IMG/VR virus record: IMGVR_UViG_3300025872_000050
Coordinates: 1-64,000 of that record
DNA from: a virus
DNA: 64,000 nt
Reading direction: 5' to 3' (one strand)
The translations under genes and the position numbers were made by a program. The stretch's first letter is position 1; each line of letters begins with the position of its first letter. The notes beneath the pieces were generated by a model. It saw nothing but the letters and a program-made list of their open reading frames with translations. It was not told the origin of the DNA and did no database searches. This document shows, piece after piece, positions 9,208-37,605 of the stretch.

Positions 9208-11481
9208 ATGGCGTGGGAACCGAGCAAGCATCCGCGCTGGCCGGACGAGACCCCCGGCGGGTTGGGCGGTCAGTTCATGGAGGTCCCAGACCTCTTCGAC
9301 CGCCTCAAGAAGCAAGTCAGTGGCTCCATGAACCTCAACTTCATGCTGACTGGCGGGAAAGGCACACCCCGCGTCAAGCGTCTGGAAGCGAGCCTTCTCG
9401 ACGACAAGCACATCTCAGTGACAGCGAGAGACGGTAAGGCTGTCGTCGGCACCTTCAAGATCAGCCGGACTGCTTCTACTGCAGACGTGATGGACCGATT
9501 GAAGCAGGTCGACGTAGGAGGGAAGCCCGATGGATCAAGCATACCAGCAGAAAAGGTGGATGGGGGTCCCCGCGGCATGCTTGCCGGGGAAGCCGATCCC
9601 GACTCCACCATCAAGCGCTTCGTCACAGCCGCCAAGCAAGTCTTCGGCCACCGCAGCAAAACGCGATCCGAAGTCGTCAGCCACTGGCAAGCGTCCTGGG
9701 ACACGCTGAACGGAGATCAGCGCGCCGCGATCGAAGACTACGTGTTCGGTTCCTCGGACCCAGATGGAGACTTCGAGTCGGACCTGTGGGAGATGGAAGG
9801 CGGCTATCTCGCCGTCTATCAAGACCGCATACGGACTGGCAACGAGGATTCTCTTCATCGGGACGACCTTCGCGCAGCTGCTTATCTCGATGAAGCGATC
9901 AAGCAGCACGCACGAACACCGGAGATGCAGGTGTACCGCTTGGTAGACCATAACGTCGTATTGCAGGAAGGCTTCGAGTTCACCGATCCGGGCTTCATGA
10001 GCACCACCGTCGGGATCGACAATCTTGAGATGGTCGCAGACTGGGTCGCGCACGGACAGGCACCGTCAACGCTCATGGTCATCAATCTTCCTGAGGGCAG
10101 TGAAGCCGCGCTTCTACGAGACACCGTGCCTGAGTTCATGCCAATGGAAGTCGTCGCAGATGAGGTGCTCATCCAACGCAACTCGACCTTCCGAGTTGAC
10201 AGCGTTCGGTGGAGTGAGCAGCTGAAGGTTCATGTGGCTGAACTCTCCCTGATCGGACAGGGCATGGGGATCTTCGAACCCGCATCAGATCAAGAGTGGG
10301 TCGACCCGCCTGCCCCTCGCGGCAAGAACAAAGGTCGAGGCGGCGCTGGCGGCTACACGTCCGACCACGCTGAGACGACGCTGACCGACCTGGGACGCGA
10401 GGGCGAGCTGCTCTTCGCGAAGCTCACCGGCGGCGAGGTGCTGCACCCGCCGGGCAGAGGCGAGCAGAGCCCGCTTGACGTTCGCGTCGGCGACAAGGCG
10501 TACGAGGTCAAGACGGTCAGCGCGGACTCGACCAGCTACAAGGCGACGCCCAAGCCGCACGAGATCTCAGCCAAGGAGGCGCATGCGAAGGAGCTCGGCG
10601 TGGAACCCGCCCTCGCTATCGTGGTCGTCGATCGCGAAGCTGGAACAGCGAAGGTGTACGAGCGCGACGGGCTCAAGGGAGGCAGGCTCTCCAAGAACAC
10701 GGGCTGGCGATACATGGGCGAGGTCGAGCTCCGCGTCGACACGCAGCAGAAGTACCTAGGCCCAGACGGCATGTACGAGGACGCGCGCGTGCGCGAGATC
10801 CACGACCCGATCGTCCGCCACTTCCTGGAGGGGCACAAGAAGGCCAAGGGCACGCCGAAGACGCTGTTCATGGCCGGCGGTTCGGGATCCGGCAAGAGCA
10901 CAGTCCGCGACGGGCTCGAGGACAAGCCGGACGACGCTGTGATCGTGGACCCGGACGCCATCAAGGAGATGCTCCCCGAGTACCAGGAGATGGTCCAGGA
11001 GGGAGACAAGCGCGCGGCCAAGCTGGTGCACGAGGAGTCGAGCGACATCGCCAAGCGTCTCATGGAGGAGGCCAACAAGCGCGGCTTCAACGTGATCATC
11101 GACGGCACCGGCGACAGCGAGCCCGGCAAGTTCTCCGGCAAGGTCGACGCCGCCAAGGCCGCAGGCCGTGACGTCAAGGTCGTGCTCGTGGACATCGACA
11201 CAGAAGAGGCGATCAAGCGCGCGATGGATCGCGCTAAGGAAACGGGACGGCGCGTACCGCCGAGCGAGATCAAGGCGATCCACGAAGCGGTGGCCGCGCG
11301 CTACCTCGAGTGGCGAGACAAGGTGGATGACTGGGAGGTGTGGGTCAACGATGGAGACTTCACGGAGCCGCCAAGGCTCATCGCGAGACGGATCGGCGGC
11401 GGGGCGATTGAAGTCATCGATCCTGCGCGTCACACGCGGATCATCAAGAAAGCAGGATCAGGAGCCGCCACAGGAGCCTGA
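9208..11481 (+). CDS. Multi-domain head-associated toxin/effector: HPRW tag + ADP-ribosyltransferase + PD-(D/E)xK nuclease + zeta-toxin-like kinase
   Basis: ART R-S-E motifs (VYRL, FMSTT, DEVL); GREGE..PLDV..YEVKT; MAGGSGSGKST..DPDAIK..HEESS..IIDGT; occupies the MuF position after the portal. Confidence 0.8.
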   Translation: MAWEPSKHPRWPDETPGGLGGQFMEVPDLFDRLKKQVSGSMNLNFMLTGGKGTPRVKRLEASLLDDKHISVTARDGKAVVGTFKISRTASTADVMDRLKQVDVGGKPDGSSIPAEKVDGGPRGMLAGEADPDSTIKRFVTAAKQVFGHRSKTRSEVVSHWQASWDTLNGDQRAAIEDYVFGSSDPDGDFESDLWEMEGGYLAVYQDRIRTGNEDSLHRDDLRAAAYLDEAIKQHARTPEMQVYRLVDHNVVLQEGFEFTDPGFMSTTVGIDNLEMVADWVAHGQAPSTLMVINLPEGSEAALLRDTVPEFMPMEVVADEVLIQRNSTFRVDSVRWSEQLKVHVAELSLIGQGMGIFEPASDQEWVDPPAPRGKNKGRGGAGGYTSDHAETTLTDLGREGELLFAKLTGGEVLHPPGRGEQSPLDVRVGDKAYEVKTVSADSTSYKATPKPHEISAKEAHAKELGVEPALAIVVVDREAGTAKVYERDGLKGGRLSKNTGWRYMGEVELRVDTQQKYLGPDGMYEDARVREIHDPIVRHFLEGHKKAKGTPKTLFMAGGSGSGKSTVRDGLEDKPDDAVIVDPDAIKEMLPEYQEMVQEGDKRAAKLVHEESSDIAKRLMEEANKRGFNVIIDGTGDSEPGKFSGKVDAAKAAGRDVKVVLVDIDTEEAIKRAMDRAKETGRRVPPSEIKAIHEAVAARYLEWRDKVDDWEVWVNDGDFTEPPRLIARRIGGGAIEVIDPARHTRIIKKAGSGAATGA

Positions 11482-11575
11482 GTACATCGACGAGGTCCCG
11501 TTCGACGTCGCTGAGTGGGGCGATCGCCCTCTGAGGTCGCCGCTCTTCCCCGACGACAGCTACGAGCGAAACTGA

Positions 11576-11612
11576 GATAATCGGTTTCGGTAAATAACCG
11601 ACTGAGTAAACT
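11576..11612 (+). promoter_or_regulatory. Repeated intergenic motif A, copy 1
   Basis: gataatcggtttcggtaaataaccgactgagtaaact; near-identical to 56192-56228. Confidence 0.7.
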
Positions 11613-11622
11613 GGAGGACGCG

Positions 11623-35885: not shown

Positions 35886-35887
35886 GG

Positions 35888-36001
35888 ATGCGCAAGAAGA
35901 GCCAGAGGCGGCTCGAGAAGAGGCTCGCCCGCGCGCTGGCGTGGGACGCACGGTTCAAGGGTCGCGACGGCTTCAAGCGCCCCGGGTCCAACAAGAAGTG
36001 A
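35888..36001 (+). CDS. Small basic peptide (37 aa)
   Basis: MRKKSQRRLEKRLARALAWDARFKGRDGFKRPGSNKK*; GGAG upstream; fills the gap. Confidence 0.55.
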   Translation: MRKKSQRRLEKRLARALAWDARFKGRDGFKRPGSNKK

Positions 36002-36015
36002 GGAGGAGGTGAGCA

Positions 36016-37605
36016 ATGAGCTACGAGAAGGTCAGAGACGGCGGCACGGTGCTCGTGATGCTCGGCGAAGACGTCAAGGCGATCTTCACCAGCGAGGTCT
36101 TGGCCGACGCCTGGATCCGCGACAACCCGGCGCCCGCAGAGCTCGCGCTCTCGGTGGCGGACTTCGACGAGAGCAAGCACCCGCGCTGGCCCAAGGGCAC
36201 GCCGGCTGGCAAGGGCGGCAAGTTCCGCGAGGTCGCGGACCTCTTCGATCTGGTGAAGAACTCGATCAGCGGCAGCTTCCGTTTCAAGGACGGGAGCACG
36301 ACGTACGAGGTGCGACGCCATCTCGGCACAGTCACCGCCTTCAAGGTCGGCAGCGGCGGGAACCTCGGACGACCGATCCCGCTTCACAAGGACGACACAT
36401 GGCAGGCGTTCCTCGTTCGCATGGACGGGCGTTCCACAGACGCAGACGCCATCAATGCTGGCTGGCCCGACAAACATGCAGCCGCATGGCTCAACAGCGG
36501 TCGAGAGAAGTTCTCCGATGCAGCGGTCAAGAAGGCTGCTGACAAGATGGAGAAGACCGGCTTCAACGCCGATGAGGTCGCGAAAGTTCGCGCGCTTGGT
36601 TCAACAGAGCAGAGCGCGGCCGATGAGATGGCGCGCAATCGGCAGATCCGCGCCGATCGCGAGAAGGAAGCCCGGGCGAACGCGAACCCCAAGCTGTCCG
36701 AGTTCGATCGGCTGATCAAGCCGCGCATGAAGGACCCTCAGAGCGCGGACTTCTACTCGCAGATCGACTACGCGGGGCTCGCCGAGGACAACGGCGTGAG
36801 CGAGGACGAGATCGTCCGCGCGGTCGCGTCCATGACCGGAGCCGACTTCAACACGACCGAGAAGGGCGCCACGCGAGACGAGGATATCGGCCACGTCACG
36901 CTCGGCGGTTCCGGTCGACGGACCAAGCTCGACATGGGCGAGTGGGACCGCGCTACGTTCGACGCGCTCATCGAGGACGCGAGCGGCGGCCGGAGGCCCA
37001 GCGGCAGCCCCGAGCGCAAGCACTACGCCGATCGCGAGAAGGAAGCTTCGATGTCCGAGTTCGATCGGCTGATCAAGCCCCGCATGAAGGACCCGGATAG
37101 CGCTGACCTCTACTCGCAGATCGACTACGCCGGCCTCGCCGAGGACAACGGCGTGAGCGAGGACGTGATCGCTGTGGCCATCGCGACCATGAAGGACGCT
37201 CGCTTCGAGGAGACCGACACCCCAGCCGCTATCGACGACGACATCGGCCGCGTCATGATCGGCAAGCTCGACATGGGCGAGTGGGACCGCACTACGTTCG
37301 ACACGCTCGTCCAAGACGCCAAGGCCAACAAGCGCGGCAACGGGAAGCCGGCTGTCGTCGTCGAGGACGTCGACATCATGAACGAGCGCATCAGCAACCC
37401 GTACAAGCTGGAGGAGGGCCTCAACGCGCGCTTCAAGCGCGTCCGCTTCAAGCTCGTGAAGGAGCGCGGTCCGGGCGGCGGCAACCCGACGTTCAACATC
37501 GAAGGTGCTCCGGCCGACGTCGCGAAAGCTCTGCAGCGGCTCGGCTACGACAAGGGCGACTTCGCGGAGATGTTCCCCGAGCTTGCGAAGGCGCTCAAGG
37601 CGTGA
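36016..37605 (+). CDS. HPRW-tagged protein with an internal ~100-aa duplication (putative head cargo)
   Basis: GGAGGAGGTGA RBS; 'FDESKHPRWPKGTPAGKGGKF'; two copies of SEFDRLIKPRMKDP...KLDMGEWDR. Confidence 0.75.
   Translation: MSYEKVRDGGTVLVMLGEDVKAIFTSEVLADAWIRDNPAPAELALSVADFDESKHPRWPKGTPAGKGGKFREVADLFDLVKNSISGSFRFKDGSTTYEVRRHLGTVTAFKVGSGGNLGRPIPLHKDDTWQAFLVRMDGRSTDADAINAGWPDKHAAAWLNSGREKFSDAAVKKAADKMEKTGFNADEVAKVRALGSTEQSAADEMARNRQIRADREKEARANANPKLSEFDRLIKPRMKDPQSADFYSQIDYAGLAEDNGVSEDEIVRAVASMTGADFNTTEKGATRDEDIGHVTLGGSGRRTKLDMGEWDRATFDALIEDASGGRRPSGSPERKHYADREKEASMSEFDRLIKPRMKDPDSADLYSQIDYAGLAEDNGVSEDVIAVAIATMKDARFEETDTPAAIDDDIGRVMIGKLDMGEWDRTTFDTLVQDAKANKRGNGKPAVVVEDVDIMNERISNPYKLEEGLNARFKRVRFKLVKERGPGGGNPTFNIEGAPADVAKALQRLGYDKGDFAEMFPELAKALKA

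Follow-up and report, generated by a model that had tools for sequence, protein, structure and literature searches.

Encapsulin cargo-loading peptides are short, conserved and carried by otherwise unrelated cargo of an HK97-fold shell; most of them sit at the C-terminus of the cargo and dock into a specific pocket on the protein of the shell they belong to. In phage T4, the capsid targeting sequence (CTS) is said to lie upstream of its cut site and to be removed after loading. The CTS permits proteolytic processing (Mullaney and Black 1996, reviewed in PMC9958956). In Rhs proteins, cleavage directly after a PxxxxDPxGL site and enclosure of the toxin in a cocoon have both been demonstrated experimentally (PMC8636562), and polyvalent proteins as well as MuF- or portal-fused effectors were predicted to be packed into phage heads (Iyer et al. 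2017, PMC5512222; Jamet et al. 2017, PMC5576092). The latter two papers mention neither the header peptide described below nor any other conserved inter-domain peptide, and the header is not among the pre-toxin domains of Zhang et al. 2012 (PMC3482391).

The window analyzed here is a 64,000-nucleotide stretch (positions 1 to 64,000) of the virus record IMGVR_UViG_3300025872_000050, whose 78,347 bases are estimated to be 87% complete. In all six frames of this record, a 37-residue stretch (SKHPRWP..GG.F followed by a helix) occurs exactly three times, with 17 of its 37 columns invariant (Table 1). A six-frame search of the whole record with copy 2 as query found only these three places (E 4e-24, 4e-15 and 5.5e-12), and a profile built from 170 instances in proteins of other organisms, none of them from the window, returned the same three copies from all window ORFs (E 4e-15, 3e-13 and 5e-12), its next match (E 0.01) being an out-of-frame overlap of copy 2. 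The three peptides given in a preliminary description of this DNA are exact translations of the + strand at the positions listed. Judged by sequence comparison, these 37 residues are a longer version of a motif that occurs widely, the HPR header (W-D-E-S-K-H-P-R..G-x-F), which we defined operationally as aromatic-D/E/N-x-x-K/L-H-P-R followed by G-x-F/W within 3-14 residues. All three window copies carry this core sequence, as seen with the foreign profile at the above E values, and each lies at a module edge or at the N-terminus of its protein; copy 2 has the stretch that follows the protease on one side and the polyprotein's next portion on the other.

Table 1. Features of the window that bear on the three header copies.
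Feature	Position	Strand	Remarks
Portal protein, Mu type	7659..9206	+	Directly 5' of the ART/Zeta gene
ART/Zeta protein, 757 aa	9208..11481	+	Header, alpha/beta domain, ART, putative nuclease, Zeta-like kinase
Header copy 1, WEPSKHPRWPDETPGGLGGQF + helix	9214..9324	+	Extreme N-terminus of the ART/Zeta protein; starts at residue 3
Small alpha/beta domain behind header, ART/Zeta protein	9322..9525	+	E 7.5e-5 with the relatives' profile, header removed
Head polyprotein, 1584 aa	12173..16927	+	From the ATG at 12173
Probable prohead protease domain	12515..13132	+	Assemblin / T4 gp21 fold, Mu gpI-like; in head polyprotein
L-E-L-S then W, further candidate cut site	13286..13297	+	End of acidic linker behind protease domain
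L-R-L-A (VLRLA-VPGV-W), candidate head-protease cut site	13847..13858	+	4 residues upstream of copy 2
Header copy 2	13871..13981	+	Inside head polyprotein, residues 567-603 of the 1584-aa form
ORF with zincin HELGH motif	16789..18567	+	Metallopeptidase kind common in polyvalent proteins
Scaffold-like coiled-coil protein	18564..19220	+	Four L-x-L-[AS] sites in 60 residues, about 18921-19100
Major capsid protein, E / Mu gpT type	19760..20848	+	
Promoter-like site	34428..34456	+	Before ligase; opens the unit holding the third header protein
Orphan protein, 529 aa	36016..37605	+	46-residue N-terminal piece, header, two ~110-aa internal repeats
L-A-L-S (ELALS-VAD-F), candidate cut site	36142..36153	+	3 residues upstream of copy 3
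Header copy 3	36163..36273	+	Residues 50-86 of the orphan protein
Terminator-like hairpin	38585..38605	+	Closes the ligase unit holding the third header protein

According to AlphaFold2 models, a small alpha/beta domain of this phage lineage starts with the second half of the 37 residues as its first helix and, in relatives, takes in about 65 residues more. In the model of the relative P0017, pLDDT is 85-91 in the alpha/beta domain, and the header core is extended and of low confidence. The sequences downstream of the three copies had been called unrelated, which is true only in part: a profile of the domain lacking header and helix matches the ART/Zeta protein (E 7.5e-5), matches the polyprotein with no more than the first 20 positions of the profile (E 0.17) and has no match in the third protein. 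Comparison of the domain with class I chaperones of type III secretion (SicP, SchA, SpcS, ExsC, SycH, SycN and others) gave Z scores of 3.7-4.6, below the trust level of the tool, with rmsd of 3.2-4.0 over about 70 residues, and Foldseek, run with the domain on PDB and BFVD, had no hit at E<=0.001.

Among 1.84 billion cluster representatives searched with a header profile, 117 clusters matched at E<=1e-3, and 87 of 127 codon matches to WDESKHPR in prokaryote genomes of many phyla proved to be in-frame headers with G-x-F. We counted 179 instances in 102 proteins, 1-8 per protein and at least 95 aa apart (median 245 aa), roughly one per domain; the header is the protein's own N-terminus (M-x-W-D-E) in 16 of the 179 and in many cases of the genome scan. 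It forms the N-terminal edge of effector modules, with a cargo of Zeta, ART, Acb1, 2H, nucleases (ParB-like among them), LPD1/LPD3, PBECR1, AHH and zincins as well as cell-wall hydrolases (pesticin-like, NlpC/P60), and it is also found on an assembly protein, the Mu-like protease of L114. The preliminary description had proposed a portable label on effectors; the recovered clusters, with cargo ranging from Zeta to zincins, support a portable unit ahead of many unrelated effector domains. The carriers are portals of four Pfam families (PF06074, PF04860, PF05136 and PF06381), MuF, Mu-like_Pro, or none. The residues upstream vary by lineage (L-x-A-A-A, Y-A-E, L-L-K-A-D, L-x-L-[ASDE]) and the header is unchanged. 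We found no literature description of the header, no Pfam or NCBIfam model and no PDB chain. No cultured phage with the header was found, tblastn of GenBank phages being empty and insensitive for so short a query, and three cultured actinophage MuF loci have no header. The HPR header is widespread and, it appears, undescribed.

The ART/Zeta protein of the window fits the description of a phage-type polyvalent protein: it joins at least two effector-type domains in one polypeptide (Pfam ADPrib_exo_Tox, E 6e-7; Zeta_toxin, E 9e-37), and its gene follows that of the portal, with protease, scaffold-like and capsid genes coming next. It begins MAWEPSKHPR, and its start codon lies one base past the portal stop codon. 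Residues 1-508 of the window portal are 42% identical to the portal half of P0058, one of the portal-header-Zeta fusions among relatives (P0021, P0038 and P0058). A six-frame search of the 78-kb record for MuF (Pfam PF04233, Phage_Mu_F) gave no match at E<=10, yet the suggestion that the header replaces MuF as the anchor of the effectors is not supported, since header and MuF coexist in one polypeptide in P0009, P0011, P0016 and L108, and in the relatives the anchor of this lineage is the portal itself.

Profile and fold analysis of the protease domain, performed on residues 140-345 of the polyprotein, placed Mu-like_Pro as its nearest Atlas clusters (score 0.93). Among 48,161 chains ranked against a low-confidence model (pLDDT 52), T4 gp21 came on top (Z 5.5, 117 residues aligned, rmsd 4.6), followed by the proteases of VZV (Z 5.2) and HCMV (Z 3.9), the next chain reaching Z 3.0; the domain had no match to Pfam PF10123 (Mu-like prophage protease I). 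The L-x-L-A/S motifs reported earlier ahead of both internal copies are indeed present, 3-4 residues upstream. Among the 11 full-module copies that have residues preceding the header (nine in relatives and both internal window copies), 10 carry L-x-L-x within nine residues before the aromatic residue of the header, P0017 (HLAA) being the sole exception. L-x-L-[AS] is a short motif. The scaffold-like protein has more of it than expected (4 observed, 0.45 expected); in the head polyprotein it is near its chance rate (2 observed, 1.5 expected), and it does not occur in the major capsid protein. The ORF with the zincin motif matches phrog_4529 (minor head protein and DNA pilot; E 4e-5) and no Pfam family at E<=0.01. 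By eye, the scaffold-like protein is like the C-terminal parts of P0010 and P0013, in which its VLSLS corresponds to ELTLS and VLTLS.

In Rhs toxins of Desulfovibrionaceae, the header begins one residue past the PxxxxDPxGL site in ..SGL/AWDESKHPR and 10 residues past it in ..DPLGL/IGEAIISQGWDESKHPR, the slash marking the site. This position beside a known self-cleavage site is new here. The header-bearing Rhs cases are confined to one bacterial family, and the header could be a passenger on toxin cassettes acquired from phages. The idea that cleavage would place the header at the N-terminus is backed by these distances together with the proteins that start with a header.

We read the HPR header and its lineage-specific helix as the N-terminal edge of a module that would be exposed by a cut inside a shell, and that is likelier to act as a post-packaging leader than as a loader; we give this tentative reading a probability of about 0.45. 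The three copies, the spread of the header, its occurrence once per module, its constancy behind varied carriers and upstream residues, the link to the portal, the protease neighbours, the L-x-L-[AS] enrichment in the scaffold-like protein, the flexibility of the header core in the model and the Rhs site count for it. Against it count the chance rate of L-x-L-[AS] in the polyprotein and the absence of this motif from the capsid protein, the failed match to PF10123, the pLDDT of the protease model, the failure to find a cultured phage with the header, the Rhs cases from a single family, and the location of the third header protein in a separately promoted ligase unit outside the head operon, which makes its packaging doubtful. 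The header would mark modules that are stored in a closed protein shell, the phage head here and the Rhs cocoon elsewhere, and are later delivered to another cell. In the procapsid, the assemblin-fold protease of the polyprotein would most likely cleave at the L-x-L-[AS] motifs that stand shortly before the two internal copies; after cutting, all three modules would start with the header, as the ART/Zeta protein does already by its start codon. Modules would probably enter the head by way of their carrier (portal in relatives, protease/scaffold polyprotein in this phage), and the flexible header would more likely be used later, at a stage that capsids and Rhs cocoons share. Our guess is that it serves as an exit leader, an N-terminal extension keeping the released module fit for unfolded passage through a narrow channel. 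Routing of effectors out with the DNA by means of the header is possible. It is doubtful that the header is a general delivery leader for shell-stored proteins, in phages with at least four portal families and in Rhs cocoons alike, exposed by a system-specific cut and needed for exit and for reaching the target cell; if true, such a leader would be about as general as a secretion signal and yet have escaped description.

Alternatively, the header may be an address label: by binding a head component such as the scaffold, the capsid interior or the portal, it would carry free-standing cargo along into the procapsid. The ART/Zeta protein, encoded by a separate gene here and fused to the portal in relatives, needs some route into the head, two more copies of the header unit sit elsewhere, one in the protease polyprotein and one in a gene far away, and the T4 CTS is a precedent for the loading of foreign proteins into heads by short N-terminal peptides (PMC9958956). 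However, the header is near-constant behind four unrelated portal families and diverse capsid proteins, unlike a co-evolving docking peptide, and it persists where portal, MuF or protease is already part of the same polypeptide, as in most carriers. Furthermore, Rhs toxins bear it without having a capsid, the phi24B polyvalent protein, which was found in virions, lacks it, and it lies downstream of the putative cut site, whereas the CTS reportedly lies upstream. These observations argue against the earlier claim that the header loads effectors into the head, and we regard a capsid-loading label as unlikely.

The extreme conservation of the header over phages of many phyla would suit a conserved partner outside the fast-evolving virion, and the cargo as a whole consists of enzymes working in the recipient cell. 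After delivery, the header might recruit a conserved cell component, such as a chaperone or prolyl isomerase for refolding, or shield the new N-terminus from degradation. We consider this quite unlikely: the cargo includes both cytoplasmic enzymes (Zeta, ART, Acb1) and cell-wall hydrolases, which makes one compartment-specific partner improbable, the header is also found on assembly proteins such as the L114 protease, and no partner of it is known. Thermolysin-like enzymes have a P1' pocket that suits an aromatic residue, and the aromatic first residue of the header would suit that of a zincin. The header is always behind a candidate or known cut site, and zincin metallopeptidases are often in or beside header proteins (P0008, P0015 and P0028), as with the HELGH-containing ORF of the window. 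It could be a prime-side cleavage signal presenting the upstream bond to any protease, including this zincin, and have no later role. This is very unlikely, given that headers which open their protein have nothing upstream to cut and that the cutting enzymes are unrelated (assemblin-fold serine proteases and the Rhs aspartyl autoprotease) while the header is identical. That the header is a conserved coding stretch at module borders which persists mainly for cassette swapping, as proposed for the pre-toxin motifs of polymorphic toxins, its peptide doing little, is very unlikely. It does lie exactly at swap points between unrelated domains and in Rhs loci, known for cassette exchange (PMC8636562), and a 20-base core of DNA is nearly identical in all three window copies, but this identity may reflect the codons favoured in a genome of 65% G+C. 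Genomes that differ greatly in G+C and codon use agree in the protein sequence of the header, and what they retain is a set of particular residues (W, K, H, P, R, G, F), not a DNA word.

Compared with the known systems, the HPR header is like the encapsulin peptides a short conserved peptide on unrelated cargo, but no binding site for it is known and it also occurs without any HK97-fold shell. The polyvalent and MuF- or portal-fused effectors (PMC5512222, PMC5576092) share with this locus the strings of effector domains (ART, Zeta, 2H, nucleases, zincin/LPD) beside portal, MuF and protease genes, although this phage has no Pfam MuF domain. The pre-toxin motifs (PT-VENN, PT-TG and Rhs PxxxxDPxGL; PMC3482391, PMC8636562) are likewise short, conserved, processing-associated borders before a swappable C-terminal toxin, and the header adjoins one of them, DPxGL, in the Desulfovibrionaceae; unlike them, it would be part of the released module and not of the carrier, occurs up to eight times per protein and is also found at true N-termini. 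The T4 CTS (internal proteins IPII and IPIII; processing by gp21; PMC9958956) resembles the header in being a short N-terminal peptide common to head-travelling proteins and tied to an assemblin-fold prohead protease. The header, in contrast, comes after the candidate sites and after the known Rhs site, would stay on the mature module and begins many proteins. The CTS occurs in T4-like phages only; the header is found with four portal families, in MuF proteins and in Rhs toxins.

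The peptides that the preliminary description placed at 9214, 13871 and 36163 are exact translations of the DNA, and each contains the long, 37-residue form of a short conserved peptide (aromatic-D/E-x-x-K-H-P-R followed by G-x-F) that we call the HPR header. The carriers are the ART/Zeta protein (copy 1), the head polyprotein (copy 2) and a 529-aa orphan, the third header protein (copy 3), encoded 20 kb from the other copies. The record is linear, with 78,347 bases and ~65% G+C, and is estimated to be 87% complete, the window being its first 64 kb. With copy 2 as query, searching all six frames of the complete record turned up three places only (E 4e-24, 4e-15 and 5.5e-12), and a profile made from 170 instances in foreign proteins, with window sequence left out, recovered the same three among all window ORFs at E 4e-15 to 5e-12, the next-best window match being an out-of-frame artefact; a six-frame motif scan revealed no fourth copy. 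Given that the translations, the six-frame search, the foreign-instance profile and the motif scan agree, the repeat is real and lies far above chance level. A chance repeat was accordingly rejected.

Genes and sites of the window, and loci or cluster representatives elsewhere, that carry or adjoin the header (P-numbers, cluster representatives found by profile search; L-numbers, prokaryote genome loci from the codon scan)
Feature	Position or source	Description
Mu-type portal	7659-9206	Pfam Portal_Mu, PHROG portal
ART/Zeta protein	9208-11481	757 aa, N-terminus MAWEPSKHPRWP; ADP-ribosyltransferase and Zeta-toxin domains, plus a putative nuclease
Head polyprotein	12173-16927	1584 aa
ORF with zincin motif	16789-18567	HELGH
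Scaffold-like protein	18564-19220	coiled coil
Major capsid protein	19760-20848	
Promoter-like site	34428-34456	5' of DNA ligase gene; opens unit with third header gene
Terminator-like hairpin	38585-38605	closes unit with third header gene
Portal-module-Zeta	P0021, P0038, P0058	
Protease-module-Zeta-header-scaffold	P0010	
Module-...-protease-scaffold	P0013	
Module-zincin	P0015, P0028	
Module-Zeta	P0024	
Rhs header loci	L021:1175-3952, L035:2021-3487, L087:4261-6384; also L011, L033, L038, L063, L069, L093	

Using HMMER, we ran a 45-column profile of the three window copies over 1.84 billion cluster representatives. The matches, 117 clusters at E<=1e-3, of which 11 reach E<=1e-10, led us to reject uniqueness of the header to this phage. 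Most hits match profile positions 1-24 only, a core with the consensus L-x-A-A-A-[WF]-D-[EP]-[SA]-K-H-P-R-[WH]-P-x-G-[ST]-x-x-G-G-[EQ]-F. Among the profile-search hits we counted 179 header instances in 102 proteins, one to eight in each and always at least 95 residues apart (median 245), indicating about one header per domain; 16 of the 179 form the protein's own start (M-x-W-D-E-S-K-H-P-R). Behind the headers stand Zeta toxin, ART, Acb1, 2H phosphoesterase, ParB-like nuclease, PARP/Tpt1-like, LPD1 and zincin domains.

A codon-level scan for WDESKHPR, in which each prokaryote species was represented by a single genome, gave at least 120 loci with at least 127 matches, where by our own estimate ~35 matches would arise by chance in the whole genome collection. 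The 127 matches listed comprise 87 in-frame headers followed by G-x-F, which come from many phyla, a further 20 that belong to QueE-like radical SAM enzymes, which are unrelated, and 20 due to chance. The short form H-P-R-x(2-4)-G-x-F is found in 60 of the 87 in-frame headers among the matches listed, and long and short forms occur within single proteins at locus L006 and are thus variants of one element. The QueE-like enzymes (Balneolales, Bacteroidota; L008, L009, L023, L036 and 16 further loci) carry the identical octapeptide CWWCDVKDSWDESKHPR coincidentally, so that a search by the motif has to demand G-x-F as well if it is to avoid such false positives, and we rejected the assumption that any WDESKHPR match is a header.

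The header matched no family in Pfam, PHROGs or NCBIfam and gave chance rows only against PDB sequences. Neither a description of it nor an experimental study of any header protein was found in the literature, including, for the description, PMC5512222 and PMC5576092 on polyvalent/MuF toxins and the polymorphic-toxin survey PMC3482391. Against GenBank phages, megablast of the region 7600-17000 found no match, and no hit at E<=1 came from tblastn with a 54-aa piece of header sequence, a search of little weight because by our estimate it could pass only matches of at least 38 bits. A word-index protein search with the module returned the window's own proteins only, an IMG/VR scan with lineage-specific patterns gave 3 loci only, and a header-bearing contig labelled E. 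coli had no match among complete E. coli genomes or phages. The header is thus widespread and apparently undescribed, and is not a private tag of this phage.

All 45 columns are matched by only about a dozen clusters. In an AlphaFold2 model built with 12 sequences for one of them, the relative P0017, a 131-aa stand-alone module, the header core is of low confidence (pLDDT about 60), whereas a small alpha/beta domain of four strands between a first helix (E-x-x-D-x-x-D-x-L-K-K-Q) and a last one is modelled with confidence (pLDDT 85-91). Because these parts differ in confidence, the 37-residue repeat consists of the header plus the first helix of the domain; a reading of all 37 residues as one tag was rejected, the second half being the modelled domain helix. 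A profile of the domain, made from relatives with header and helix cut off, matched the ART/Zeta protein (E 7.5e-5) and the start only of the polyprotein (E 0.17), and found no match in the third header protein. A gain from this window is an alpha/beta domain, specific to the lineage, to which the header is joined. No convincing fold counterpart of the domain was found. The best structural rows for residues 43-126 of the P0017 model were type III secretion class I chaperones (Z 3.7-4.6; SicP, SchA, SpcS, ExsC and SycH among them), a likeness too weak to interpret; it is of note in that unfolded N-terminal segments of effectors destined for export are held by chaperones of this class.

Residues 1-508 of the window portal are 42% identical to the portal half of P0058, and the ART/Zeta gene is therefore the cargo half, now separate, of a portal fusion known in relatives. 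We regard this as good comparative evidence that the ART/Zeta product belongs in the head, and the window adds a clear portal fission/fusion link. Portal and header-Zeta cargo form a single ORF in relatives, against two ORFs in the window, where one base separates the portal TAA (9204-9206) from the ART/Zeta ATG (9208) and the frames differ. Portals of three further Pfam families (L099:3441-6314, L057:2815-4524, L034:4593-8000 and L064:355-5979) continue into header-led cargo, namely LPD3 with DUF2213, PBECR1 and 2H phosphoesterase. Upstream of the window portal, a giant ORF with two LamG-type domains by Pfam (1-6765; >2254 aa) continues past the 5' edge of the contig, and no terminase gene lies between it and the portal.

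The repeat had been read as a tag that loads effectors into the head, or ejects them with the DNA, and replaces MuF as their anchor. Replacement of MuF was not borne out, because header and MuF often stand together in the same polypeptides; by Pfam, this record holds no MuF. The loading label itself has to contend with a header that varies little whichever of four Pfam portal families (PF06074, PF04860, PF05136 and PF06381) stands before it, is kept where the protein is already fused to portal, MuF or protease, and precedes a bona fide Mu-like protease at L114 and MuF itself at L108. Furthermore, a large polyvalent protein of phi24B, detected in virions by proteomics (bioRxiv 10.64898/2026.04.10.717836), is without the header, as are the MuF loci of three cultured actinophages, ReqiPine5, Gina and GMA6.

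The header is also found where there is no capsid. The clearest cut-site case comes from nine Desulfovibrio and Nitratidesulfovibrio proteins with an Rhs/YD shell, all of a single bacterial family, where the header separates the shell from a toxin that is pesticin-like or NlpC/P60. In one group it begins 1 residue past the border motif (P-V-N-R-Q-D-V-S-G-L / A-W-D-E-S-K-H-P-R) and in a second group 10 residues past it (P-V-S-A-F-D-P-L-G-L / I-G-E-A-I-I-S-Q-G-W-D-E-S-K-H-P-R). Experiments on Rhs proteins place cleavage directly after DPxGL, so that the next residue is the first of the toxin, which a cocoon encloses (PMC8636562). Among the neighbour genes of two Rhs loci, 3 of 10 matched a Pfam family at E<=0.001, none of them phage-related. 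Together, the Rhs border sites and the 16 header-initial proteins support the idea in the preliminary description that processing would place the header at the N-terminus, and the Rhs context, added by analysis of this window, makes head loading less likely as its function.

Within nine residues before the header aromatic, L-x-L-x occurs in 10 of 11 full-module copies (nine from relatives and the two internal window copies), for example as LLLD, LSLS, LMLE, LNLV, LHLA, LRLA and LALS, the exception being P0017 (HLAA). The upstream residues of other lineages are uniform per group (L-x-A-A-A, Y-A-E, K-x-x or L-L-K-A-D) and the header is unchanged. Evidence for a candidate protease of the window's own is moderate. 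Polyprotein residues 140-345 did not match Pfam Mu-like_Pro, their nearest Atlas clusters are Mu-like_Pro families, and a low-confidence model of them (pLDDT 52), ranked against 48,161 chains, placed T4 gp21 (Z 5.5), VZV protease (5.2) and HCMV protease (3.9) first, the next being 3.0; a word-index protein search with the candidate domain returned nothing. The scaffold-like protein is rich in L-x-L-[AS] (4 observed vs 0.45 expected), all four sites lying within 60 residues, and one of the four is conserved in the scaffold portions of two relatives; outside this protein the motif is not enriched. By eye, the scaffold-like protein (probable start at Met58) is similar to the scaffold portions at the C-termini of the protease polyproteins P0010 and P0013. 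Here, protease and scaffold are separate: ~1000 extra residues and the zincin gene, whose start (16789) overlaps the end of the polyprotein gene (16927), lie between them.

The third header gene lies in a unit running from the ligase promoter-like site to a terminator-like hairpin, and is therefore outside the head operon; its product may be no head protein at all. It contains two internal repeats of ~110 residues at 36700-37360 (SEFDRLIKPRMKDP..YSQIDYAGLAEDNGVSED..KLDMGEWDR). A word-index search of 5.8 billion proteins for relatives of similar length returned the window's own protein only, and tblastn found no match among GenBank phages.

Overall, the observation is confirmed and its interpretation supported in part. 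As we read them, all header contexts have in common closed-shell storage, cleavage immediately ahead of the header and delivery into a second cell at a later stage, and these three features lead us to propose, at a probability of roughly 0.45, that the peptide would be the post-cleavage N-terminal header of modules stored in a shell and then delivered. Tentatively, we favour a flexible leader that would be needed for unfolded exit from the shell. A label for loading is unlikely, and the four portal families, the fused carriers, the Rhs toxins and the header-free phi24B protein speak against one that docks to capsids specifically. That the header acts in the recipient cell, after transfer, we consider improbable, and that it is a prime-side determinant of the processing itself, less probable still. 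A recombination junction is the poorest candidate of these.

If the header truly marks cut-free, head-carried modules, it would make injected, virion-borne effectors predictable from phage genome sequence, set the borders between modules of giant polyvalent proteins, and give laboratory systems a means of loading phage particles with proteins of choice. The Rhs link, if true, would join phage heads and Rhs cocoons, delivery systems so far treated apart.
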